A stretch of DNA of 10,929 bases, from IMG/VR virus record IMGVR_UViG_2698536418_000009, positions 1 through 10,929 of that record. The stretch is one strand, 5' to 3'. This DNA comes from a virus (taxonomy: Duplodnaviria; Heunggongvirae; Uroviricota; Caudoviricetes). Within the stretch, counting starts at the first letter, position 1; each line of letters starts with the position of its first letter. Below are positions 1 through 10,929 of the stretch, in pieces. The translations under genes were made by a program, and so were the position numbers. The notes beneath the pieces are model-generated. The model saw only the letters and a program-made list of their open reading frames with translations. It had not been told where the DNA came from and searched no databases.

Positions 1-272
1 CCGCGATTGACATACATCGGCGTTTCGGTGGTGTCTTCTTCGGAAATTTTCCCGCGGTTAGTCGGGCGAACATATGAGAGTTTGTGTTTTATTTTCACAC
101 GGTTCTCATCAAACGGTTCGATTTCCAGGTTGAGCGAGACCTTACCTTTGGTTTTCGTGTTCATCACACCGGAAGCGACTTCACTGAGAACTGCGCCGAT
201 TTTGGTTTCAAATACGCCGCCGTCCAGCTCCCCGATAAATGCCTGCACATCAGTACTGCGTTCGCTAGCCAT
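1..272 (-). CDS. Hypothetical early-left-operon protein, partial (start ATG at 272-270, runs off the left edge of the window); N-terminus MASERSTDVQAFIGELDGG...
   Basis: Reverse-strand frame open for 90 codons from ATG (plus 270-272) to the window edge. GAGGAG Shine-Dalgarno 7 nt upstream (rev-comp of 282-287). Not in the ORF track because no stop lies inside the window. Confidence 0.5.
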   Translation of the reverse strand, partial: MASERSTDVQAFIGELDGGVFETKIGAVLSEVASGVMNTKTKGKVSLNLEIEPFDENRVKIKHKLSYVRPTNRGKISEEDTTETPMYVNR

Positions 273-299
273 TTTGCTGCTCCTCATCATATCGACCCT

Positions 300-620
300 G
301 CAAGGTCGGTTGGTTTCTCCACAAAACAGAGAAGAACACCTGCGGTGGCAGCCGCCCGGATGGATTGGGTTATGAGCCCGTCGTCCGGTGATGCTCTTCT
401 CTGTTTTGTAAAAAGGACGGTACCAGCCGGAAGCAAGGATACAAGCTGATACCGCCAAGACTACACACAGCATAAAGTTGTGGTGCCGGGTGCCTCCCGG
501 TGCCTGGCGAAGGTTGCACACCAGGCGGGTGGGTATCCACAGAAGGTCGACTGTCAGCCTCAACCTTAACCCGCGTGCGCTGAGTCGCATTCACCACAAC
601 GCTAAGGATTCTCTTTGGTT
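300..620. other. GC-rich structured non-coding stretch with a perfect 15-bp inverted repeat (321-335 / 395-409) enclosing a 59-nt loop; candidate RNA element
   Basis: ACAAAACAGAGAAGA at 321-335 is the exact reverse complement of TCTTCTCTGTTTTGT at 395-409. Further short GC stems downstream (CCTGG...CCAGG, CCGGG...CCCGG). The only ORFs here are Pro/Arg-rich, implausible products. Confidence 0.3.
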
Positions 621-861
621 GAAAATACTTAGCTGTTATGTGCCTGTCTTTTCACCACTTCAGGCTCGGTGGTATCTTGGTGTTTTCATATAGCCAAGAA
701 GGAAATAGTTATGACCAAAGAAGAAAAATTCTTTATTTATTCCAACTATCGGTTAAGACTCGCACTGCATATCAGACTGCTGCCATGACATCAGATAAAA
801 ATTACAGTACGTCAGAAAACCCGATAGACGACATAAGCAAGCTTTACGATAGTTCGAAGCA

Positions 862-1038
862 CTACTCGATAAAAAGTTTGCTGAGGCTGGGCTTGAGTGA
901 TTGTTGAATAATCGACAAAACCCAACTTAAATTTTCGTCAGTGGGCTCGATGCCATGTGCGGTGAGCTCACTTTTCAAAACTCCAAGCAATTCAGAGCTG
1001 ATTTTCAATATATCTGCTTGAGTTCTAACTATTCCCAC
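862..1038 (-). CDS. Hypothetical small protein of the leftward early operon (58 aa from GTG; alternative ATG start at 1068 gives 68 aa)
   Basis: ORF track 862..1068 minus. Strong SD AGGGAGG (rev-comp) about 5 nt upstream of in-frame GTG at 1038-1036; the ATG at 1068 has no SD. Same orientation as neighbouring early-left genes. Confidence 0.4.
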   Translation of the reverse strand: MGIVRTQADILKISSELLGVLKSELTAHGIEPTDENLSWVLSIIQQSLKPSLSKLFIE

Positions 1039-1127
1039 TTTTTCCTCCCTTGGTCTACGCGCGGTCATGTTTTACGCCCAAACGACTTCACAGTTATTGT
1101 TTAAAATCTGGACTTTCATTTTGTTCT

Positions 1128-1331
1128 TTAACCTCCAGATTTCAGCGTATCTAAAGGCGCATTCTCATTTGGTGTGAACCGAATAGTTGTGCTGATATTG
1201 ATTAATGCCCCGACACACAAGACTACGCACTCAGAGCAGATAGCAACTTCATCTTTTCCGCCTTTGGCGATGATTTTTTTTGCCTGCAGCTCGTTTGCGC
1301 CACAAAACGAGCATGTGAAATAACTGTTCAT
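1128..1331 (-). CDS. Stand-alone ClpX-type C4 zinc-ribbon protein (zf-C4_ClpX-like), about 67 aa
   Basis: Product contains CSFCG...(21 aa)...CSECVVLC, matching the Cys spacing and local residues of the ClpX N-terminal zinc-binding domain (E. coli ClpX: [32 protein letters not shown]). Start is uncertain: the track begins at 1349, the internal Met is at 1331, and my hand reverse-complement near 1317-1321 did not reproduce the track frame. Confidence 0.5.
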   Translation of the reverse strand: MNSYFTCSFCGANELQAKKIIAKGGKDEVAICSECVVLCVGALINISTTIRFTPNENAPLDTLKSGG

Positions 1332-1441
1332 TTGTGCTCTCTTACACATAGTATTTAACGAATCATCCGGTCATTCATACGCCACCGGCGGCTACTTCGT
1401 GGGCGTCCTGCCTGTTCGTTACTGCAACATCTTTAAGTTGT

Positions 1442-1474
1442 AATCTAGTTGTTGTTTTGGTTGTTGTCAACAAC
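1442..1474 (-). promoter_or_regulatory. pL-like leftward early promoter with overlapping operator palindrome (OL)
   Basis: On the minus strand: -35 TTGACA (plus 1465-1470), 17-bp spacer, -10 TAGATT (plus 1442-1447). Palindrome GTTGTTG-T-CAACAAC at 1460-1474 overlaps the -35; another GTTGTTG at 1448-1454. Confidence 0.4.
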
Positions 1475-1664
1475 TTTATGTGGTTTTGACGGATGTGAAA
1501 TGAGGGCAAGGGTTATCAAAAAAGAAGGTTGTATGGACGATGCGCTTTTAATTACACAAGGGACACTTTCCTTCCGTGATTGGAAACTCTCAAATCACGG
1601 GAGGAAGATTGAAAAGGCGGGTAATAATGGTAACTAAATTTCTGAAGGAAGGTTTTTTGATGCA

Positions 1665-2351
1665 TTACCAAGTGCGCGATGACCAGAATACTCTACCTAT
1701 AACGTGAATTCTGGAACGCCTATCTTCGAAGGTGAGTATTTCATCTGGATACTCATCTTTATTGAAACTTCTTAGAATCAGACCACCGTCAGGTAAATTG
1801 ATCAATATTTTAACTCTAAGTAATACGCCATCACGTATGGCATAAAGATCCCCATCACGAATAGGAACCGTTTGGGAAACATCAACAGCAACAAAATCTC
1901 CATTGTTAAGTACAGGTAGTAAACTATTGCCCCAAATTTTTACGATCTTTGCATTGGAGACACATACACCAGCTTTTCTTAAATCAATCCTTCTTAGCGG
2001 GAACCAGTCTACAGTTGATTCAACTATTTCAGCCAAACATCCATTACCCGCTGATAACTCGACATCTAGGACTGGAATGTTTGCAAAAATGTCAGGATCT
2101 AATGCTGTACTTTCAGCCTCCTTTACAACAAGGTCTGGGAAAGACGCGTTATCCTCAATTCCCAATTGCAACCACTTTTGAGAAACCCCTAACACTTTAG
2201 CAATCTCTTTAATTTTCCGAGGCTGTTGAGTTTCTCCATTCTCGATTTTCGCTACGGATTGTTGTGAAAGCCCAATTTTTTCAGCTAGTTGCGCCTGACT
2301 CATTCCTGCTTTTTCTCTTTCGCTTTTTAGTCTTTCTGCCAATGTTTTCAC
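1665..2351 (-). CDS. cI: Phage CI-type repressor: N-terminal XRE-family HTH plus C-terminal S24 (LexA-like) autopeptidase domain
   Basis: 228-aa ORF. N-terminus has the HTH_XRE signature (AGMSQAQLAEKIGLSQQSVAKIENGETQQP); the C-terminal half has the size and layout of an S24 peptidase domain, but I did not identify the catalytic Ser/Lys. Transcribed divergently from the cro-like gene. GTG start with GAGGGGGA SD. Confidence 0.88.
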   Translation of the reverse strand: MKTLAERLKSEREKAGMSQAQLAEKIGLSQQSVAKIENGETQQPRKIKEIAKVLGVSQKWLQLGIEDNASFPDLVVKEAESTALDPDIFANIPVLDVELSAGNGCLAEIVESTVDWFPLRRIDLRKAGVCVSNAKIVKIWGNSLLPVLNNGDFVAVDVSQTVPIRDGDLYAIRDGVLLRVKILINLPDGGLILRSFNKDEYPDEILTFEDRRSRIHVIGRVFWSSRTW

Positions 2352-2378
2352 AACATATCCCCCTCGTTTTTATTGAGG

Positions 2379-2470
2379 TTACAACTTTATGTTTTAGCTT
2401 TCCAACATCTAAAAGTTGTGATAAAAGTTGTTGTAGTTGTATAATCGAAGTTATCAACAACTTTACTACT
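2379..2470 (+). promoter_or_regulatory. OR/pR-like region: rightward promoter (-35 TTGTGA 2416-2421, -10 TATAAT 2440-2445) flanked by operator half-sites
   Basis: Consensus -10 TATAAT with an 18-bp spacer to TTGTGA. Half-sites ACAACTTT (2381-2388), AAAGTTGT (2412-2419), GTTGTTG (2427-2433) and CAACAAC (2455-2461), the same motif family as at OL. AGGAG SD precedes the cro-like ATG at 2489. Confidence 0.45.
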
Positions 2471-2488
2471 TACAGATAGGAGAAAGCT

Positions 2489-2737
2489 ATGACACCTGAG
2501 CAATTAGCCTTATCAGAGGCAATCGCTCTGGCTGGTGGTCAATCAGAATTGGCTCGGAAGCTCACAGCCAGCAGTGGTCGTTTAGTAAAGCAACAACATG
2601 TCTGGAACTGGTTGAACAGAGAAAAGCGTCCCCCTGCAAAGCTCTCGATATTTATTGAAATGACCACTGGCGTATCAAAAGAAAAATTACGTCCAGATAT
2701 TTTTCAAAAGATTAAAGACTTATCAGATGGAAAGTAA
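2489..2737 (+). CDS. Cro-like / YdaS-family HTH regulator (82 aa)
   Basis: First gene rightward of the immunity promoter region. Motif AGGQSELARKL ... RPDIF is typical of the small Cro/YdaS-like (DUF1870-type) prophage regulators. AGGAGA SD 4 nt upstream of the ATG. Confidence 0.7.
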   Translation: MTPEQLALSEAIALAGGQSELARKLTASSGRLVKQQHVWNWLNREKRPPAKLSIFIEMTTGVSKEKLRPDIFQKIKDLSDGK

Positions 2738-3197
2738 CCACAGTTTTAAGGAGATAGCCGTGGGTAAGCATCACTGGAAAGTAGAAAAACAGCCTGAGTG
2801 GTACGTGAAAGCTGTCAGAAAAACTATCGCAACGTTGCCGGGTGGTTACGCTGAAGCAGCTGACTGGCTGGATGTAACAGAGAACGCATTATTTAACCGC
2901 CTTCGTGCCGATGGCGATCAGATTTTCCCGCTGGGATGGGCAATGATTTTGCAACGTGCTGGTGGAACTCACTTCATTGCTGACGCTGTGGCGCAGTCTG
3001 CAAATGGCGTCTTTGTGTCTCTTCCTGACGTCGAGGATGTGGACAACGCCGATATAAACCAGCGCCTGCTGGAAGTCATCGAACAGATCGGGAGTTACTC
3101 AAAGCAGATTCGTTCGGCAATCGAAGATGGGGTAGTGGAGCCACACGAGCAGACAGCAATTAATGATGAGTTGTATCTGTCAATTTCGAAGCTCTAG
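2727..3197 (+). CDS. CII-like early regulator (phage CII/CP76- or YdaT-type), 145-156 aa
   Basis: Sits immediately after the cro-like gene; size and position fit CII-like prophage regulators. ATG at 2727 overlaps the cro-like stop; an in-frame GTG at 2760 has a strong AAGGAG SD (2748-2753), so the true start may be 2760. Confidence 0.55.
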   Translation: MESNHSFKEIAVGKHHWKVEKQPEWYVKAVRKTIATLPGGYAEAADWLDVTENALFNRLRADGDQIFPLGWAMILQRAGGTHFIADAVAQSANGVFVSLPDVEDVDNADINQRLLEVIEQIGSYSKQIRSAIEDGVVEPHEQTAINDELYLSISKL

Positions 3198-3492
3198 GAG
3201 CATGCAGCACTGGTCTACAAAATCTTTTGCGCTCCAGAAGAGAGTAACGCCCGCGAGTGTGCAGCTCCGGGCGTCGTGGCGTCGATTGCTTCTGGTTGTG
3301 GAGAAACTAACGCATGAACAGTTTAACAACACACTACCGTCGCTCGCAACTGATTGCGCTTCCTGTACCGGGTGGAAAAGCGAAGGTGGAGTATTGCTAT
3401 GCAGTGAATGTACCAGGTGACAGGGAAATTGTAACCCACAGCTTTGCAGAGTGGGCTGTGGGTGATTTCAACCGGCAGAAGGAGACAGTCCT

Positions 3493-3705
3493 TTGCGACA
3501 AGTTAACCGCTGGTTCAAAGATCACTACGGAGTGCCCGTCAGAGTCATTCGTTGGGAGCCGGAAACACAACGGGTTATCTACCTCCGTGAAGGCTATGAA
3601 CATGAATGCTTCAGTCCGCTCGAACAGTTTCGTCGTAAATTCAGGGAAATAGAGGTCGGTCATGAGCCTGTTAATGACATCCCAGCCCATTGTGATAAAT
3701 CGTGA
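3493..3705 (+). CDS. Small conserved protein (70 aa, TTG start) directly upstream of and overlapping the O-like gene
   Basis: AAGGAG SD (3479-3484) 8 nt upstream of TTG 3493. All five nucleotide differences between the two copies in this ORF (3573, 3588, 3600, 3606, 3615) are synonymous third-position changes in this frame and would be nonsynonymous in the overlapping frame of ORF 3314..3652. Confidence 0.5.
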
Positions 3706-4021
3706 TCTTGCATGCCGTATTGGTCTGAATGAGGCAATTGTGTTGCAGCAGCTTCATTACTGGCTGAATGAAACGAATTCAGGCACTGAGCATGGCGGAA
3801 TTCGCTGGGTTTATAACACGACAGAACAGTGGCTGGAGCAGTTTCCGTTCTGGTCAGAGTCCACTCTGAAACGCACATTTGCAAGCCTGAAATCACTTGG
3901 GGTTTTGCGTCGCGAGCAACTCAATAAATCGAAGCGTGACATGACCAACTTCTACACGATCAACTATGAAAGTGAGCTTTTAGAAGAGGTCAAAATGCAC
4001 TTCTCCATCGGGTCAAAGTGA
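3662..4021 (+). CDS. O-like replication initiator, N-terminal DNA-binding domain (119 aa), separated from the C-terminal domain by an in-iteron TGA stop and frame change
   Basis: GAGGT SD before ATG 3662. Product ends ...HFSIGSK inside the iteron array. The next ORF (4026..4631) is in a different frame and matches the C-terminal two-thirds of the intact O-like protein at 6552..7493. Confidence 0.55.
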   Translation: MSLLMTSQPIVINRDLACRIGLNEAIVLQQLHYWLNETNSGTEHGGIRWVYNTTEQWLEQFPFWSESTLKRTFASLKSLGVLRREQLNKSKRDMTNFYTINYESELLEEVKMHFSIGSK

Positions 4022-4138
4022 CCTGATGGATGGGCGCAAAATGATACGATCCATTGGTTCAAAACGACACGCTGTCATCGGGTCAAAATGGCCCAATGAT
4101 CTTACAGAGAATACAACAGAGATTACTACAGAGAATAA
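3986..4138 (+). repeat. Candidate ori iterons of copy 1: four GGTCAAA-core repeats (3986-4000, 4008-4023, 4054-4070, 4078-4094) plus three tandem 12-bp A-rich repeats (4103-4138)
   Basis: Direct repeats GAGGTCAAAATGCAC / TCGGGTCAAAGTGACC / TTGGTTCAAAACGACAC / TCGGGTCAAAATGGCCC, then TACAGAGAATAC / AACAGAGATTAC / TACAGAGAATAA. They sit at the N-domain/C-domain junction of the O-like gene, the same place lambda ori sits in gene O. Confidence 0.5.
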
Positions 4139-4631
4139 AACCTCTTCTCGTCCGGACGCTTCGCAACCGGACACGCAAACGGCTGAACAGGAGTTTTTAA
4201 CTCGCCATCCTGATGCGGTTGTATTCAGCCCTAAAAAGCGCCAGTGGGGAACGCAGGATGATTTGACCTGCGCACAGTGGCTCTGGAAAAAAATCATCGC
4301 CCTGTACGAGCAGGCCGCCGAATGTGACGGCGAGGTGGTTCGTCCCAAAGAACCGAACTGGACAGCATGGGCAAACGAAATTCGCCTGATGTGTGTGCAG
4401 GATGGTCGTACTCACAAACAAATCTGCGAGATGTACAGCCGCGTCAGCCGCGATCCGTTCTGGTGCCGTAACGTGCTCAGCCCGTCGAAGTTGCGGGAAA
4501 AATGGGATGAGCTTTCCCTGCGCTTATCGCCGTCCGTCAGCACGCACACAGAAAAACGTGAAGACCCGTACTTCAAAGCCAGTTACGACAACGTGGACTA
4601 CAGCCAGATCCCGGCAGGATTCAGGGGGTGA
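4026..4631 (+). CDS. O-like replication initiator, C-terminal domain ORF (201 aa); possibly the 3' part of a disrupted O gene
   Basis: Residues from TSSRPDASQPDTQTAEQ onward match the C-terminal region of ORF 6552..7493 apart from a few substitutions. Weak SD before ATG 4026. Confidence 0.55.
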   Translation: MDGRKMIRSIGSKRHAVIGSKWPNDLTENTTEITTENKTSSRPDASQPDTQTAEQEFLTRHPDAVVFSPKKRQWGTQDDLTCAQWLWKKIIALYEQAAECDGEVVRPKEPNWTAWANEIRLMCVQDGRTHKQICEMYSRVSRDPFWCRNVLSPSKLREKWDELSLRLSPSVSTHTEKREDPYFKASYDNVDYSQIPAGFRG

Positions 4632-4633
4632 TC

Positions 4634-4726
4634 ATGAGTCTGTTAAATGACGTTCAGAAATTCATTGAAGCCCATCCGGGCTGTACTTCCGGAGACATTG
4701 CGGATGCTTTTTACGTGGGGGCTTAA
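4634..4726 (+). pseudogene. 30-codon remnant of the PerC-like regulator gene (in-frame 396-bp internal deletion relative to 7496..7984)
   Basis: Encodes MSLLNDVQKFIEAHPGCTSGDIADAF + YVGA, i.e. the first 26 and last 4 codons of the 162-aa copy-2 protein. Deletion junction near 4708-4712 in a short T-run. The stop/start overlap TAATG with the methyltransferase gene is retained. Confidence 0.5.
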
Positions 4727-5379
4727 TGAGTAATAAATATTGCCAGGCGCTGGTAGAACTGCGGAACAAACCAGCCCATGAACTGAAGGAAGTGGGCGAT
4801 CAGTGGCGCACGCCGGACAACATTTTCTGGGGAATTAACACCTTGTTTGGTCCGTTTGTTCTGGATCTGTTCACTGACGGTGATAACGCCAAATGTGCCG
4901 CGTATTACACGGCGGAAGACAACGCGCTGGCGCATGACTGGTCAGAACGTCTTGCGGAGCTTAAAGGTGCTGCCTTTGGCAATCCCCCGTACAGCCGCGC
5001 CAGTCAGCATGAGGGGCAATACATCACCGGCATGCGTTACATCATGAAGCATGCCAGTGCCATGCGTGATAAAGGCGGGCGCTATGTTTTCCTGATCAAA
5101 GCTGCCACCGGCGAAGTGTGGTGGCCGGAAGGTGCAGATCATATTGCTTTTATTCGCGGGCGTATTGGTTTTGAACTGCCTGCCTGGTTTATCCCGAAAG
5201 ACGAAAAGCAGGTGCCAACAGGTGCTTTCTTCGCTGGTGCTATTGCTGTTTTCGACAAGACCTGGAAGGGACCGGCAATCAGCTACATCGGGCGCGATGA
5301 ACTTGAGGCATGTGGTGAGGCATTTCTGGCGCAGGTTCGCCAGCAGGCGGAAAAACTGGTCAGGGAGATGGTGGCATGA
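4726..5379 (+). CDS. Phage DNA N6-adenine methyltransferase (orphan, Dam-like), copy 1
   Basis: 217 aa with the catalytic motif GNPPYS (the (D/N/S)PP(Y/F) motif IV of N6-adenine MTases). Start overlaps the upstream stop (TAATG); stop overlaps the rusA start (ATGA). Confidence 0.8.
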   Translation: MSNKYCQALVELRNKPAHELKEVGDQWRTPDNIFWGINTLFGPFVLDLFTDGDNAKCAAYYTAEDNALAHDWSERLAELKGAAFGNPPYSRASQHEGQYITGMRYIMKHASAMRDKGGRYVFLIKAATGEVWWPEGADHIAFIRGRIGFELPAWFIPKDEKQVPTGAFFAGAIAVFDKTWKGPAISYIGRDELEACGEAFLAQVRQQAEKLVREMVA

Positions 5380-5765
5380 AGCTAATACTGCCTTTTCCGC
5401 CCAGCGTGAACACGTACTGGCGACACCCCAACAAAGGGGCATTTGCTGGTAAGAGCCTGATAAGCGAGGCGGGGCGAAAATTTCAGAGCGCGGCGTGTGC
5501 CGCCATCATTGAGCAGTTACGTCGTCTGCCGAAACCAACGTCGGCACCTGCTTCAGTGGAGATCGTGTTGTTTCCTCCGGATAACAGGATCCGCGATCTG
5601 GACAACTATAACAAGGCGCTGTTTGACGCCCTGACCCACGCGGGTGTGTGGGAAGACGACAGTCAGGTGAAAAGAATGCTGGTGGAGTGGGGACCGGTTA
5701 TCCCGAAAGGGAAGGTCGAGATCACTATCAGTAAGTACGAGAAAACGGCGGGTGCAGCCGCCTGA
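5376..5765 (+). CDS. rusA: RusA-family Holliday junction resolvase, copy 1
   Basis: 129 aa; MKLILPFPPSVNTYW... and RDLDNYNKALFDALTHAGVWEDDSQV follow the RusA layout. Typical nin-region position. Confidence 0.85.
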   Translation: MKLILPFPPSVNTYWRHPNKGAFAGKSLISEAGRKFQSAACAAIIEQLRRLPKPTSAPASVEIVLFPPDNRIRDLDNYNKALFDALTHAGVWEDDSQVKRMLVEWGPVIPKGKVEITISKYEKTAGAAA

Positions 5766-5784
5766 TCAAGAGGAGAAACGAAGT

Positions 5785-6207
5785 ATGAATAATCTGATGG
5801 TCATTGATGGTATTGAAGTTCGTCGTGATGTTTATGGGCGTTACAGCCTGAACGATCTACATCACGCAGCAGTAGCATCTGGTGCAAATGCCAGAACCAA
5901 GGAGCCAGGAAAGTTTCTTTCCAGCCAACAAACTGTTGAACTTGTTCATGAATTGACCAACACCCAGAATTTGGGTGTTGACCCGGTGAGTGTGATTCAT
6001 GGGGGAAATGAACGGGGAACGTATGTCTGCAAGGAACTGGTGTATGCCTATGCAATGTGGATCAGCCCGTCATTCCATCTGAAGGTGATCCGTACTTTCG
6101 ATATGGTAACCAGCGCACCGGAAAAATTATCCGGACAGGCTGCTGACAAGATGCAGGCTGGCGTGATCCTGCTGGACTTTATGCGATGTGGAGAAACTAA
6201 CGCATGA
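5785..6207 (+). CDS. KilA-N domain protein, copy 1, C-terminally truncated at the duplication junction (140 aa)
   Basis: AGGAG SD 9 nt before ATG 5785. Matches the first 133 residues of ORF 9366..10175, then diverges at 6186 into 7 novel codons (CGETNA plus stop) supplied by the start of unit 2. Confidence 0.65.
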
Positions 6208-6382
6208 ACAGTTTAACAACACACTACCGTCGCTCGCAACTGATTGCGCTTCCTGTACCGGGTGGAAAAGCGAAGGTGGAGTATTGCTATGCAGTAAATG
6301 TACCAGGTGACAGGGAAATTGTAACCCACAGCTTTGCAGAGTGGGCTGTGGGTGATTTCAACCGGCAGAAGGAGACAGTCCT

Positions 6383-6562
6383 TTGCGACAAGTTAACCGC
6401 TGGTTCAAAGATCACTACGGAGTGCCCGTCAGAGTCATTCGTTGGGAGCCGGAAACACAACGTGTTATCTACCTCCGCGAAGGCTATGAGCATGAGTGCT
6501 TCAGCCCGCTCGAACAGTTTCGTCGTAAATTCAGGGAAATAGAGGTCGGTCATGAGCACTAA
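6383..6562 (+). CDS. Small conserved protein, copy 2 (59 aa, TTG start), overlapping the start of the intact O-like gene
   Basis: Same SD and TTG as at 3493; coding sequence differs from copy 1 only by synonymous changes up to the repeat boundary. Below the ORF-track length cutoff. Confidence 0.45.
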
Positions 6563-7493
6563 ATTAACCGGCTATGTATGGGATGGTTGCGCTGCATCAG
6601 GCATGAAATTATCCAGCGTGGCAATTATGGCCCGCCTGGCTGATTTCAGTAATGACGAAGGTGTGTGCTGGCCATCAATTGAAACCATTGCCCGCCAGAT
6701 TGGCGCGGGGATGAGTACCGTCAGAACGGCTATCGCACGGCTGGAAGCAGAAGGCTGGTTAACGCGTAGGGCGCGTCGCCAGGGTAACCGCAATGCGTCG
6801 AATGTTTATCAGCTTAACGTTGCGAAGCTTCAGGCAGCGGCATTTTCTCAACTGTCAGATTCTGACCCGTCAAAATCTGACGCATCAAAATCTGACCCGT
6901 CAAAATTTGATGCGTCGAAATCTGGCAAAAAAGCGGGTTTTCACCCGTCAGAATCTGGTGGGGATCCGTCAGTAAAATCAAAACATGATCCGTCAGATAA
7001 AAAAACTTCTCGTCCGGACGCTTCGCAACCGGACACGCAGACGGCTGAACAGGATTTTTTAACTCGCCATCCTGATGCGGTTGTATTCAGCCCTAAAAAG
7101 CGCCAGTGGGGGACGCAGGATGATTTGACCTGCGCACAGTGGCTCTGGAAAAAAATCATCGCCCTGTACGAGCATGCCGCCGAATGTGACGGCGAGGTGG
7201 TTCGTCCCAAAGAACCGAACTGGACAGCCTGGGCAAACGAAATTCGCCTGATGTGTGTGCAGGATGGTCGTACTCATAAACAAATCTGCGAGATGTACAG
7301 CCGCGTCAGTCGCGATCCGTTCTGGTGCCGTAACGTGCTCAGCCCGTCGAAGCTGCGGGAAAAATGGGATGAGCTTTCCCTGCGCTTATCGCCGTCCGTC
7401 AGCACGTACACCGAAAAACGCGAAGACCCGTACTTCAAAGCCAGTTACGACAACGTGGACTACAGCCAGATCCCGGCAGGATTCAGGGGGTGA
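6552..7493 (+). CDS. O-like replication initiator (replisome organizer), intact, 313 aa: N-terminal winged-helix DNA-binding domain, iteron-encoded linker, conserved C-terminal domain
   Basis: GAGGT SD 5 nt before ATG 6552. The N-terminal 90 aa look like a helix-turn-helix replication-initiator fold. The linker is encoded by tandem 15-bp repeats (SDPSK/SDASK). C-terminal domain shared with ORF 4026..4631. Confidence 0.75.
   Translation: MSTKLTGYVWDGCAASGMKLSSVAIMARLADFSNDEGVCWPSIETIARQIGAGMSTVRTAIARLEAEGWLTRRARRQGNRNASNVYQLNVAKLQAAAFSQLSDSDPSKSDASKSDPSKFDASKSGKKAGFHPSESGGDPSVKSKHDPSDKKTSRPDASQPDTQTAEQDFLTRHPDAVVFSPKKRQWGTQDDLTCAQWLWKKIIALYEHAAECDGEVVRPKEPNWTAWANEIRLMCVQDGRTHKQICEMYSRVSRDPFWCRNVLSPSKLREKWDELSLRLSPSVSTYTEKREDPYFKASYDNVDYSQIPAGFRG
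6861..7006 (+). repeat. Candidate ori iterons of copy 2: four tandem 15-bp repeats (consensus about CCGTCAAAATCTGAC, 6866-6925), an A-rich tract, and three degenerate CCGTCAG-containing repeats
   Basis: CCGTCAAAATCTGAC / GCATCAAAATCTGAC / CCGTCAAAATTTGAT / GCGTCGAAATCTGGC, then GGCAAAAAAGCGGG, then CCCGTCAGAATCTGG, TCCGTCAGTAAAATC, TCCGTCAGATAAAAAAAC. Located inside the O-like gene linker. Confidence 0.55.
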
Positions 7494-7495
7494 TC

Positions 7496-7984
7496 ATGAG
7501 TCTTTTGAATGACGTTCAGAAATTCATTGAAGCCCATCCGGGGTGTACTTCCGGAGACATTGCGGATGCTTTTGCAGGTTACTCACGACAGCGCGTTCTG
7601 CAGTCAGCAAGCAAGTTACGTCAGAGTGGGCGTGTGGCTCACCGTTGTGAAGGGGATACACGCAGACATTTCCCGCGGCTGACTGAGATACCGCAGGAGC
7701 CGGAACCGCAACCAGTTCGTGAATCCAGACCTGTGCGCAATTTCTATGTCGGCACTAACGATCCCCGGGTGATTTTGTGCCTGACCCGCCAGGCGGAAGA
7801 ACTGGAGTCCAGGGGCTTATACCGTCGTGCTGCAACGGTGTGGATGGCGGCATTCCGTGAAAGCCACTCCCAGCAAGAGCGAAACAATTTTCTGGCGCGT
7901 CGTGAGCGGTGTTTACGGAAAAGCAGCAAGCGCGCTGCATCGGGTGAAGAGTGGTATCTGTCAGGGAATTACGTGGGGGCTTAA
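7496..7984 (+). CDS. PerC-like transcriptional regulator with N-terminal HTH-like region (162 aa)
   Basis: C-terminal motif AEELESRGLYRRAATVWMAAF resembles the PerC/Pch family signature as I remember it. AGGGGG SD before ATG 7496. Stop overlaps the MTase start (TAATG). Confidence 0.5.
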   Translation: MSLLNDVQKFIEAHPGCTSGDIADAFAGYSRQRVLQSASKLRQSGRVAHRCEGDTRRHFPRLTEIPQEPEPQPVRESRPVRNFYVGTNDPRVILCLTRQAEELESRGLYRRAATVWMAAFRESHSQQERNNFLARRERCLRKSSKRAASGEEWYLSGNYVGA

Positions 7985-8637
7985 TGAGTAATAAATATTG
8001 CCAGGCGCTGGTGGAGCTGCGGAACAAACCAGCCCATGAACTGAAGGAAGTGGGCGATCAGTGGCGCACGCCGGACAACATTTTCTGGGGAATTAACACC
8101 CTGTTTGGCCCGTTTGTTCTGGATCTGTTTACTGATGGTGATAACGCCAAATGCGCCGCGTATTACACTGCGGAAGACAACGCGCTGGCGCATGACTGGT
8201 CAGAACGTCTTGCGGAGCTTAAAGGTGCTGCCTTTGGTAATCCCCCGTACAGCCGCGCCAGTCAGCATGAGGGGCAATACATCACCGGCATGCGTTACAT
8301 CATGAAGCATGCCAGTGCCATGCGTGATAAAGGCGGGCGCTATGTTTTCCTGATCAAAGCTGCCACCAGCGAAGTTTGGTGGCCGGAAGATGCAGACCAT
8401 ATTGCTTTTATTCGCGGGCGTATTGGTTTTGAACTGCCAGCCTGGTTTATCCCGAAGGACGAGAAGCAGGTGCCGACAGGCGCTTTCTTCGCTGGTGCTA
8501 TTGCTGTTTTCGACAAGACCCGGAAGGGACCGGCAATCAGCTACATCGGGCGCGATGAACTTGAGGCATGTGGTGAGGCCTTTCTGGCGCAGGTTCGCCA
8601 GCAGGCGGAAAAACTGGTCAGGGAGATGGCGGCATGA
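7984..8637 (+). CDS. Phage DNA N6-adenine methyltransferase (orphan, Dam-like), copy 2
   Basis: 217 aa with GNPPYS motif. Differs from copy 1 by about 20 nt substitutions counted by eye, giving 4 amino-acid changes. The track start at 7951 is an upstream GTG; the ATG at 7984 matches copy 1. Confidence 0.8.
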   Translation: MSNKYCQALVELRNKPAHELKEVGDQWRTPDNIFWGINTLFGPFVLDLFTDGDNAKCAAYYTAEDNALAHDWSERLAELKGAAFGNPPYSRASQHEGQYITGMRYIMKHASAMRDKGGRYVFLIKAATSEVWWPEDADHIAFIRGRIGFELPAWFIPKDEKQVPTGAFFAGAIAVFDKTRKGPAISYIGRDELEACGEAFLAQVRQQAEKLVREMAA

Positions 8638-8960
8638 CGACGTTAACTCAATGCCAGCAGCAGGTGCTGGATATGCTGATTTCTTACCAGCAAGAACGTG
8701 GCTTTCCGCCAACCAATCAGGAGGTGGCAACCATGCTGGGATACCGTTCGGTGAATGCAGCGGTGGAGCATCTTCGCGCACTGGAGAAAAAAGGCGTCAT
8801 CACGATAAAGCGTGGCGTGGCCCGGGGGATAACTCTTCATACCGCGGTGAAGGACGACGACAGCGAGGCGGTCGGGATTATCCGCGCACTGCTTGCCGGT
8901 GAGGAAAACGCCAGGCTGCGTGCAGCCCACTGGTTACATGAGAGGGGCCTGAAAGTATGA
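8634..8960 (+). CDS. LexA N-terminal DNA-binding-domain protein lacking the S24 peptidase domain (108 aa)
   Basis: TQCQQQVLDMLISYQQERGFPPTNQEVATMLGYRSVNAAVEHLRALEKKGVITIKRGVARGITL aligns with the E. coli LexA winged-helix DNA-binding domain (...[62 protein letters not shown]). No peptidase domain follows. ATGA overlaps at both ends. Confidence 0.7.
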   Translation: MTTLTQCQQQVLDMLISYQQERGFPPTNQEVATMLGYRSVNAAVEHLRALEKKGVITIKRGVARGITLHTAVKDDDSEAVGIIRALLAGEENARLRAAHWLHERGLKV

Positions 8961-9346
8961 AGCTGATCTTGCCTTTCCCGCCCAGCGTGAACACGTACTG
9001 GCGACACCCCAACAAAGGGGCGTTTGCTGGTAAGAGTCTGATAAGCGCAGCGGGGCGCAAATTCCAGAGCGCGGCGTGCGCAGCAATAGTTGAGCAGTTA
9101 CGTCGTCTGCCGAAACCAACGTCGGCACCTGCTTCAGTGGAGATCGTGTTGTTTCCTCCGGATAACCGGATCCGCGATCTGGACAACTATAACAAGGCGC
9201 TGTTTGACGCCCTGACCCATGCGGGTGTGTGGGAAGACGACAGTCAGGTGAAAAGAATGCTGGTGGAGTGGGGACCGGTTATCCCGAAAGGGAAGGTCGA
9301 GATCACTATCAGTAAGTACGAGAAAACGGCGGGTGCAGCCGCCTGA
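8957..9346 (+). CDS. rusA: RusA-family Holliday junction resolvase, copy 2
   Basis: 129 aa, 2 amino-acid differences from copy 1. Start overlaps the stop of the upstream LexA-DBD gene. Confidence 0.85.
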   Translation: MKLILPFPPSVNTYWRHPNKGAFAGKSLISAAGRKFQSAACAAIVEQLRRLPKPTSAPASVEIVLFPPDNRIRDLDNYNKALFDALTHAGVWEDDSQVKRMLVEWGPVIPKGKVEITISKYEKTAGAAA

Positions 9347-9365
9347 TCAAGAGGAGAAACGAAGT

Positions 9366-10175
9366 ATGAATAATCTGATGGTCATTGATGGTATTGAAGT
9401 TCGTCGTGATGTTTATGGGCGTTACAGCCTGAACGATCTACATCACGCAGCAGTAGCATCTGGTGCAAATGCCAGAACCAAGGAGCCAGGAAAGTTTCTT
9501 TCCAGCCAACAAACTGTTGAACTTGTTCATGAATTGACCAACACCCAGAATTTGGGTGTTGACCCGGTGAGTGTGATTCATGGGGGAAATGAACGGGGAA
9601 CGTATGTCTGCAAGGAACTGGTGTATGCCTATGCAATGTGGATCAGCCCGTCATTCCATCTGAAGGTGATCCGTACTTTCGACATGGTAACCAGCACACC
9701 GGAAAAATTATCCGGACAGGCTGCTGACAAGATGCAGGCTGGTGTGATTCTGCTGGACTTTATGCGTCGGGAATTAAACCTGTCTAACTCATCTGTGCTT
9801 GGTGCCTGTCAGAAACTCCAGGAGGCTGTTGGCTTACCGAATCTGGCACCGCGCTATGCCATTGATGCTCCTGCTGATGCACACGATGGCTCAAGTCGCC
9901 CGACACTGTCACTGAGTGCACTGCTGAAACAGTATGGTATCCGCCTGACGGCTAATCAGGCATATCACCAGATGGCAAAGCTGGGGATCGTTGAACAACG
10001 TGAACGATACAGCCGCACTGCGATTAACAACATCAAAAAATTCTGGTCGCTGACGGCGAAAGGCTGCATGTTCGGCAAGAACATCACCAGTCCCGCAAAT
10101 CCGCGCGAGACGCAGCCGCATTTCTTCGAATCCCGATTCCCTGAGCTGTTAAAGCTGCTCGATACCGTTCATTGA
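9366..10175 (+). CDS. KilA-N domain protein with C-terminal antirepressor-like extension (269 aa), full-length copy
   Basis: AGGAG SD 9 nt before ATG 9366. The N-terminal 110 aa have the size and position of a KilA-N domain (recalled, not aligned). The C-terminal 135 aa are unique to this copy. Confidence 0.7.
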   Translation: MNNLMVIDGIEVRRDVYGRYSLNDLHHAAVASGANARTKEPGKFLSSQQTVELVHELTNTQNLGVDPVSVIHGGNERGTYVCKELVYAYAMWISPSFHLKVIRTFDMVTSTPEKLSGQAADKMQAGVILLDFMRRELNLSNSSVLGACQKLQEAVGLPNLAPRYAIDAPADAHDGSSRPTLSLSALLKQYGIRLTANQAYHQMAKLGIVEQRERYSRTAINNIKKFWSLTAKGCMFGKNITSPANPRETQPHFFESRFPELLKLLDTVH

Positions 10176-10182
10176 GGTGACC

Positions 10183-10929
10183 GTGAGAGCACTACTGACC
10201 CCTGAAATTGCCCCGCGTATGGGGATCGTATTGTTCAGGCCAGGTTCAGAGCTGATGCCCCTGTTTATGCAGGGGCGTGTCCTGCTGGAGCCTGAGCCGG
10301 AGCGTTATTCATCTTTCGCCAGTGGTGCCGTTCCGGCGGCATCACAACCGCTGGCGGATGATCCTGCCGTTCGGGCCGTGTTCCGCAATGAGGCAGTGAT
10401 CCGTCGTGCTGGTGGCGTGGAATGTCTTGAAAGCTGGTTACTTCGTGAAAAAGGCTGCCAGTGGCCTCATTCCGACTGGCACAGCGAGAACATGACCACA
10501 ATGCGACACGCTCCGGGTGCAATCCGTCTGTGCTGGCACTGCGATAACCAGCTGCGCGATCAGTTCACGGAACGGCTGGAATCAATGGCAACGGATAACT
10601 GTGCCCGCTGGGTGTTGTCTGTTGTGCGTCGGGATCTCGGTTTTGATGACAGTCACGTTGTGACAATGCCGGAACTGTGCTGGTGGCTGATTCGTAATGA
10701 TCTGGCGGATGCCTTACCGGAAAGTGCAGCCCGTAAGGCACTGAGATTACCGAAGCCTGTTGTGCCGTCTGTTACCCGGGAAAGTGACCTTGTGCCTTCG
10801 GTTCCTGCCACCAGCATCATCCAGGATAAGGCGAAAAAGGTGCTGGCGCTGAAAGTGGATCCGGAGTCGCCGGAGTCTTTTATGTTACGCCCAAAACGTC
10901 GCCGCTGGGTTAATGAAAAGTACACGCGC
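10183..10929 (+). CDS. Conserved prophage protein with a Cys/His cluster, partial (runs off the right edge of the window); start uncertain (GTG 10183 or ATG 10219)
   Basis: Plus-strand frame open for 249 codons to the window end with E. coli-like codon usage. Contains C-x-W-x-H ... H ... C-W-H-C spacing that could bind metal. The minus-strand track ORFs 10265..10522 and 10653..10925 are shorter and judged to be shadows. Confidence 0.5.
   Translation, partial: MRALLTPEIAPRMGIVLFRPGSELMPLFMQGRVLLEPEPERYSSFASGAVPAASQPLADDPAVRAVFRNEAVIRRAGGVECLESWLLREKGCQWPHSDWHSENMTTMRHAPGAIRLCWHCDNQLRDQFTERLESMATDNCARWVLSVVRRDLGFDDSHVVTMPELCWWLIRNDLADALPESAARKALRLPKPVVPSVTRESDLVPSVPATSIIQDKAKKVLALKVDPESPESFMLRPKRRRWVNEKYTR

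Follow-up and report, generated by a model that had tools for sequence, protein, structure and literature searches.

Why would a single Escherichia coli prophage carry two intact genes for a Dam-like N6-adenine methyltransferase? The question is raised by a 10,929-nucleotide (nt) stretch of Caudoviricetes DNA, positions 1 to 10,929 of IMG/VR record IMGVR_UViG_2698536418_000009, which we call the window; it is the entire contig CYCB01000068.1 of the short-read E. coli draft assembly GCA_001283405.1. The DNA represents the early-right operon of a lambdoid prophage resembling CPS-53/KpLE1 or SfV, with yfdP and genes for a CI-type repressor, YdaS and YmfL upstream. A first-pass annotation of the window had read the two dam genes as an unusual pair, both under purifying selection. 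We consider it likely that they are ordinary prophage alleles from two related lineages, joined by recent recombination rather than maintained as a pair, and that both encode phage Dam enzymes of the GATC type. Nothing in the evidence ties the doubling of dam to methyltransferase function.

Two full-length phage-type dam genes

The two genes are as follows.

4726 to 5379, + strand: dam copy 1, 217 residues, PF05869/TIGR01712; allele A (G129, G136, W180, V216)
7984 to 8637, + strand: dam copy 2, 217 residues, PF05869/TIGR01712; allele B (S129, D136, R180, A216)

For copy 2, the start was taken at the ATG at 7984, which is homologous to the start of copy 1; the mechanical list of open reading frames (ORFs) extends this gene to a GTG at 7951. 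The copies differ at 21 of 654 nt. Sixteen of these differences fall at third codon positions, three at first and two at second positions, and four residues change from copy 1 to copy 2 (G129S, G136D, W180R and V216A). An earlier count by eye, about 20 nucleotide changes and four amino acids, was thus accurate. Synonymous divergence (dS) between the copies was 0.128 and non-synonymous divergence (dN) 0.0079, giving a dN/dS of 0.06 by the Nei–Gojobori method, and the deficit of non-synonymous changes was significant (p = 2e-8, binomial test).

Both proteins matched the Pfam family PF05869 ('Dam') far above its cut-off of 28.1 bits, with 150.3 bits (E 5e-44) for copy 1 and 151.5 bits (E 2e-44) for copy 2. 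Scores against TIGR01712, the NCBIfam equivalog for phage N-6-adenine-methyltransferase, were 249.5 and 254.2 bits, respectively (cut-off 97.05), and the matches covered profile positions 1–165 of 165. Each copy also matched, over its full length, the PADLOC Type II methyltransferase model derived from REBASE. The sequence NPPY, which represents catalytic motif IV, (N/D)PPY, occupies residues 86–89 in both proteins and does not vary among 15 aligned family members, which extend down to 28% identity. Other family-invariant residues are likewise present in both copies, namely D25, W27, T29 and P30 (the DxWxTP motif), G42, D47, N54, C57, W132 and G145–R146. These data bear out the first-pass description of two intact, full-length ORFs with an NPPY motif.

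PF05869 was the sole Pfam family reported for these proteins. No match at E <= 0.01 was seen to PF02086 (MethyltransfD12), the family of host E. coli Dam and T4 Dam, so the window proteins are 'Dam-like' by chemistry and name and not by membership in the host family. The host and T4 enzymes share with them the N6-adenine chemistry, the (D/N)PPY motif and, probably, the GATC target, which is the origin of the name 'Dam-like', but belong to a different sequence family. A phmmer search of the Protein Data Bank with the Dam protein gave no sequence relative at E <= 1. An AlphaFold2 model, built from a shallow alignment of 18 close homologues, had a mean predicted local distance difference test (pLDDT) score of 40, too low to be of use. 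We also considered M.EcoGII, a non-specific enzyme that is described as a class beta methyltransferase (PMC7544214), as a model for the window proteins. This candidate was dropped because it was judged to belong to a different family; the window proteins carry their N-terminal motifs ahead of NPPY and have PF05869 as their only match.

Restriction endonuclease families were absent among the window ORFs in both Pfam and PADLOC searches: the Pfam assignments of all called genes were non-nuclease or unrelated, and PADLOC found methyltransferase models only. In ten other loci with allele B the neighbouring genes were unchanged, and no endonuclease family adjoined Dam. Judged by sequence, both genes are orphan (solitary) phage-type N6-adenine methyltransferases of PF05869/TIGR01712, as had been supposed when no restriction partner was visible. 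Both proteins are already-catalogued sequences under the name phage N-6-adenine-methyltransferase, and belong to already-known biology.

Separate lineage histories of the two alleles

To place the genes in context, we note that the window is internally repetitive. Self-BLAST gave four collinear blocks of 96.9–98.4% identity.

3297 to 3667 matching 6187 to 6557: block 1
4135 to 4711 matching 6997 to 7573: block 2
4711 to 5379 matching 7969 to 8637: block 3, with the dam genes
5376 to 6185 matching 8957 to 9766: block 4

Together these blocks make up two segments arranged head to tail.

3297 to 6185, + strand: segment A (2.9 kb), with a DUF4222 ORF, a frameshifted rep, a PerC remnant, Dam, RusA and a truncated KilA-N
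6187 to 9766, + strand: segment B (3.6 kb), with a DUF4222 ORF, an intact rep, PerC, Dam, a LexA-like gene, RusA and the start of a full-length KilA-N

What is doubled is a multi-gene block and not the methyltransferase gene alone. Whole-gene indels separate the segments, which differ in PerC, in the LexA-like gene and in the N-terminus of rep.

Each segment has close counterparts in prophages with a single dam gene. The gene order of segment A, without PerC and the LexA-like gene, occurs as an ordinary single copy in E. coli Z1323CEC0019 and fS25a, and that of segment B is common to many E. coli prophages. The single-copy A-type prophage of Z1323CEC0019 shares 99.5% identity with window positions 1–6185, and positions 6187–10929 are 99.4% identical, ungapped, to single-copy B-type prophages such as that of GCA_900448385.1. 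At dam itself the agreement is complete. Copy 1 shows no difference over 654 nt from the dam gene of Z1323CEC0019, an unrelated complete genome, or from those of sister isolates, and copy 2 is 100% identical at the nucleotide level in two complete genomes. The exact allele A protein was found on 85 contigs and the exact allele B protein on 311, and in all ten of the other allele B loci shown there is one Dam each. Because each allele is nucleotide-identical to dam in single-copy prophages elsewhere, the 21 differences between the copies predate their join.

A sister isolate, GCA_001285845.1, carries a single-copy prophage with one Dam that is identical to window positions 5–6101. Over positions 5–6185 there are just four differences (at 6102, 6115, 6162 and 6168), all within the last 84 bp before the point where segment A gives way to segment B. 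The sister assemblies share with the window a nonsense codon at 3195 in ymfL and a 23-bp deletion in the rep gene of segment A, and have the ordinary single-Dam arrangement. This agreement over 6.1 kb with a single-Dam sister leaves no time in which selection could have acted on the pair.

These comparisons bear on the claim of purifying selection. A dN/dS of 0.06 does record long-term constraint on the gene family, and to that extent the claim stands. The constraint acted over separate lineage histories, and it does not speak for maintenance of the pair: the alleles match single-copy ones and predate the join, the pair is found in one assembly, and a sister isolate has one copy. More generally, when two gene copies in a genome were imported from different lineages, a low dN/dS between them is not evidence that both are maintained. 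The related claim, that two diverged copies in one prophage are unusual, is correct in that the arrangement is rare, being confined to one draft assembly. What makes it rare appears to be a structural accident and not an adaptation, namely a recent and private join of two lineages.

The same evidence leaves almost no credence for the idea that one dam gene was duplicated in tandem in situ, after which the copies diverged and were both kept by purifying selection. The low dN/dS and the two intact ORFs are what this idea would predict. But each copy is nucleotide-identical to single-copy alleles of unrelated strains, and the copies differ by whole modules (PerC, the LexA-like gene and the N-terminus of rep). 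Moreover, over 6.1 kb the sister isolate, which lacks a second copy, shows no point differences from the window save for the four imported B-type alleles.

Tandem duplications and mosaic joints in lambdoid phages arise by illegitimate recombination followed by homologous exchange, as is established in phage genetics. The window resembles these duplications in having a head-to-tail, multi-gene repeat with a single novel, non-homologous joint and flanks that match two extant lineages. It is unlike them in that its repeat units come from two diverged lineages, with a patchwork of A-type and B-type sequence around the joint.

The junction and the surrounding mosaic

The joint falls within a KilA-N gene, of which the window holds two versions.

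6185 to 6187, + strand: non-homologous junction from segment A to segment B
5785 to 6207, + strand: truncated KilA-N', 140 residues, closing with ymfL's own ...CGETNA stop
9366 to 10175, + strand: full-length KilA-N, 269 residues

At the junction (6185/6186), KilA-N breaks off at about codon 134 and is followed by one extra A (6186) and then by the last 21 nt of a ymfL-type gene. A megablast search with window positions 5786–6586 against 5,426 complete E. coli genomes gave multi-piece matches only. Four matches covered at least 80% of the query, and the three of these that were inspected reflected deletions or a different order of genes. No exact copy of a 38-mer spanning the junction was present in species-representative genomes or in JGI metagenomes, and the truncated KilA-N fusion protein is represented by a single accession, on one contig. 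ENA protein accession numbers, consulted as a guide to gene order in other isolates, bore out the order within this contig only. Given that the sister prophage has a single Dam and that the junction protein occurs on one contig, the co-residence of the two dam genes is very recent and selection on the pair cannot be inferred.

We typed the sequence around the junction with Z1323CEC0019 as the A-type and GCA_900448385.1 as the B-type reference. Four tracts were assigned, each with full agreement among its informative sites.

6102 to 6168: truncated KilA-N beside the junction, B-type (4 of 4 sites: 6102, 6115, 6162 and 6168)
8965 to 9220: RusA copy 2, B-type (17 of 17 sites)
9412 to 10112: full-length KilA-N, A-type (26 of 26 sites)
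10302 to 10926: DUF968 gene, B-type (9 of 9 sites)

In the recombination that we favour, a resident A-type prophage would have gained a B-type block of 3.6 kb behind its own 2.9-kb counterpart, through one illegitimate junction inside KilA-N together with homologous exchanges nearby. A crossover in the homologous RusA/KilA-N sequence might have integrated a circularised or tandemly duplicated B-type unit; two other conceivable routes are unequal exchange and deletion between tandem prophages. If the B-type unit already carried the junction, one RusA/KilA-N crossover, a short conversion tract and a further exchange near 10113–10301 could yield the mosaic. The contig would then be a snapshot of mosaic lambdoid prophage building, with one illegitimate joint and exchanges close by, and with the 'before' state preserved in the sister isolate.

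Several observations weigh against this reading in one or another of its parts. Whatever the model, about three exchanges are required to account for the A/B mosaic around KilA-N. The segments are exactly identical over 462 bp (5640–6101 and 9221–9682), and which Dam adjoins the junction therefore rests on read-pair threading through this repeat in a short-read contig. As to the enzymes, residue 129 of copy 1 is G, against an S that hardly varies in the family, and its residue 136 is G, against D in relatives; in copy 2, residue 180 is R, against W in every close relative. With such rare residues at conserved positions, one or both Dam enzymes could be impaired. Neither allele is obviously dead, however, because both circulate widely as single copies. 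Finally, GATC occurs 54 times in the window against 55 expected, and so is neither avoided nor enriched; with its frequency at expectation, composition is uninformative on the Dam target.

The 462-bp repeat also gives rise to an alternative that we regard as unlikely, in which the junction is real and the contig takes the wrong path through that repeat and through a second exact repeat of 189 bp (10113–10301). The isolate would then hold a single-Dam A-type prophage and a separate, tandem or circular B-type unit of 3,581 bp (6187–9682 plus 6102–6186), and the two dam alleles would not be neighbours. Such an error is conceivable in a window that is a whole draft contig, with an identical run longer than a short read. 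Four B-type single-nucleotide polymorphisms (SNPs) beside the junction, paired with an A-type KilA-N in the 'B copy', are what a swapped path would produce, and the sister isolate has a plain A-type prophage that is identical up to 6101. On the other hand, assemblers usually break at unresolved repeats and do not mis-join them. Five A-type sites (9412–9521) would stay inside the B unit, so that about three switches are needed here too and the account is no cleaner. The assembler would, moreover, have used a single-copy path twice while leaving the higher-coverage B path unused. The first distinguishing SNP lies just 110 bp past the junction.

A more adventurous proposal, which we consider highly improbable, is that the 3,581-bp B-type unit (6187–9766, closed by the 6185/6186 joint) is a small self-contained circle that inserts into related prophages by homologous recombination. 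It agrees with the allele pattern, which is A-type until about 5940, B-type between 6102 and the joint and A-type again after the second RusA gene, as a Campbell-type single crossover next to a conversion tract would leave it. With an intact rep and its iterons, PerC, Dam, the LexA-like gene and RusA, the proposed circle may be somewhat like the lambda-dv mini-replicon. If it exists, such a circle could pass dam and other accessory genes from one prophage to another with no phage particle involved. For the window as it stands, we retain the recent join of two prophage lineages.

Predicted activity, expression and neighbouring genes

The function of the window proteins is predicted from their relatives. 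The closest one with a name, SfV Dam (orf41 of Shigella flexneri phage SfV, U82619, AAL89443.1), is 98.6% identical to copy 1 over 217 residues, the three differences being S129, D136 and V153. SfV has one dam copy, in the gene order that also surrounds copy 2: orf40/PerC, dam, orf42/LexA-like, RusA, KilA-N (orf44), DUF968 and Q. Allison and colleagues, in their 2002 paper on SfV, reportedly confirmed Dam activity by experiment; our literature searches for SfV Dam found nothing relevant. In E. coli K-12, YfdM of the cryptic prophage CPS-53 (KpLE1) is 100% identical to both window proteins over residues 1–89, but is a 91-residue stump that ends right after NPPY, whereas both window genes are full-length. 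CPS-53 also shares with the window its neighbouring genes yfdN (PerC) and yfdP/Q/R. A preprint reports that yfdM is needed for propagation of a T1-like phage, with no methylation shown (bioRxiv 10.1101/413146).

More distant members of PF05869 with the DxWxTP and NPPY motifs include the orf32 product of the Stx2 phage VT2-Sakai and the staphylococcal PamA/phage 80 Dam proteins. These are 28–36% identical to the window proteins (orf32, 28%) and shorter (175 and 141 residues). From its record's note, we take orf32 to be M.EcoVT2Dam. The VT2-Sakai and staphylococcal homologues are likewise orphan genes of temperate phages, lying in the early or nin region, and GATC is their reported or assigned target. 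M.EcoVT2 homologues are listed with a predicted specificity of GATC (PMC6602927), and PamA renders DNA sensitive to DpnI (bioRxiv 10.1101/2024.04.17.589803). In PamA the catalytic residue P65 corresponds to NPPY in the Dam homologue of phage 80. By analogy with these homologues, the target of both window proteins is most likely GATC. Each would methylate adenine at N6 in this sequence, with S-adenosyl-methionine as donor and with the NPPY loop holding the flipped-out base.

The likely role of such an enzyme would be full methylation of fast-replicating phage DNA, and hence protection from methylation-sensitive restriction at GATC. In virions of P22 and lambda, host Dam is reported to leave the DNA under-methylated (PMC8022706), which provides a rationale for a phage-borne Dam.

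Expression of the two genes would depend on elements further upstream.

2416 to 2445, + strand: PR-like promoter, TTGTGA-18-TATAAT
1665 to 2351, − strand: CI-type repressor (helix-turn-helix domain plus Peptidase_S24), the expected silencer of the rightward operon in a lysogen

In a consensus scan of the + strand, the PR-like promoter was the best match, and the only one upstream of both dam genes to agree at 10 of 12 positions; no promoter was found directly before either copy. The CI-type repressor should silence it in a lysogen, and both dam genes would be expressed upon induction or infection. Thus both are probably genes of the rightward early operon of a CPS-53/SfV-like lambdoid prophage, silent in the lysogen. 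The SfV record annotates a weak dam promoter inside orf40 (PerC), which is a very weak match to consensus (TTGCGC-15-TACGGA). Upstream of copy 1 this region has been deleted with the loss of PerC. Upstream of copy 2, a T-to-G change at 7894 converts the –35 hexamer from TTGCGC to TGGCGC. This change is synonymous in the PerC gene of segment B, and is the sole difference between window positions 6187–9411 and the B-type reference GCA_900448385.1.

These upstream changes, and the positions of the substitutions, could be taken to mean that the alleles differ in motif, activity level or regulation, such that their co-occurrence is advantageous (sub- or neo-functionalisation). Residues 129 and 136 fall inside the conserved KAATSEVWWPED stretch of the Dam family, position 180 is also conserved, and copy 1 has lost the upstream PerC and SfV-annotated promoter where copy 2 keeps the site with an altered –35. 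We nonetheless regard this as very unlikely. Just four residues differ, both alleles are widespread as single copies (on 85 and 311 contigs), and the pair occurs in one assembly only. The annotated promoter, moreover, is a very weak match, and the scan shows none before either gene. The alleles do supply natural variation at conserved positions (G129/G136 versus S129/D136, and W180 versus R180) for work on this Dam subfamily.

The remaining genes of the two segments, and the gene just upstream, are as follows.

2760 to 3317: ymfL, with a nonsense codon
3662 to 4631, + strand: rep of segment A, split into ORFs of 119 and 196 residues
4628 to 4711, + strand: PerC/yfdN remnant of segment A, with a 395-bp deletion relative to segment B
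5376 to 5765, + strand: RusA copy 1 (A-type), its start overlapping the Dam stop
6552 to 7493, + strand: rep of segment B, intact, 313 residues, HTH_36
7490 to 7984, + strand: PerC-family gene (yfdN homologue), segment B only, holding the site annotated in SfV as a weak dam promoter
8634 to 8960, + strand: LexA DNA-binding-domain gene, 108 residues, segment B only, its start and stop overlapping Dam and RusA
8957 to 9346, + strand: RusA copy 2 (B-type)

Signs of decay surround dam copy 1, in the form of the rep frameshift, the PerC remnant and the truncated KilA-N, with the ymfL nonsense codon just upstream of segment A. That codon results from a C-to-T change at 3195 (CAG to TAG) and shortens YmfL from 185 to 145 residues relative to Z1323CEC0019; the 145-residue product is also called in sister assemblies. 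The split in the rep gene of segment A stems from the 23-bp deletion, at 3986/3987, between two AGGTCAAA repeats in a run of iteron-like GGTCAAA(A/G)TG motifs. In Z1323CEC0019 the gene is intact and encodes a replication initiator of 330 residues. The deletion is common to four other assemblies, and so marks a lineage. The PerC remnant, a pseudogene in the annotation of other A-type prophages, reduces the native sequence ahead of dam copy 1 to 15 nt.

In segment B, positions 6840–6962 lie inside rep and contain six copies of a 15-bp period, TCAAAATCTGACNCN, which is iteron-like and encodes a repetitive SDxSKSD peptide. They probably serve as the origin's iteron array in the B-type replicon. 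The LexA-like protein lacks a cleavage domain, and its gene is inserted, moron-like, exactly between Dam and RusA.

Other prophages of this type show further rearrangement at the same place. In E. coli LZHX12 (7366–7817) and in strain 300033 (7366–7675), dam is absent through deletions that run from rep into the LexA-like gene. Such dam-removing deletions mark the dam region as a frequent site of rearrangement. Database proteins of 376–380 residues with both PerC (PF06069) and Dam (PF05869) domains occur in many E. coli assemblies; it appears that the two ORFs are fused in some prophages, or have been merged by gene callers. In base composition, GGCC is strongly rarer in the window than expected, with 13 occurrences against 43 predicted from trinucleotide frequencies (ratio 0.3).

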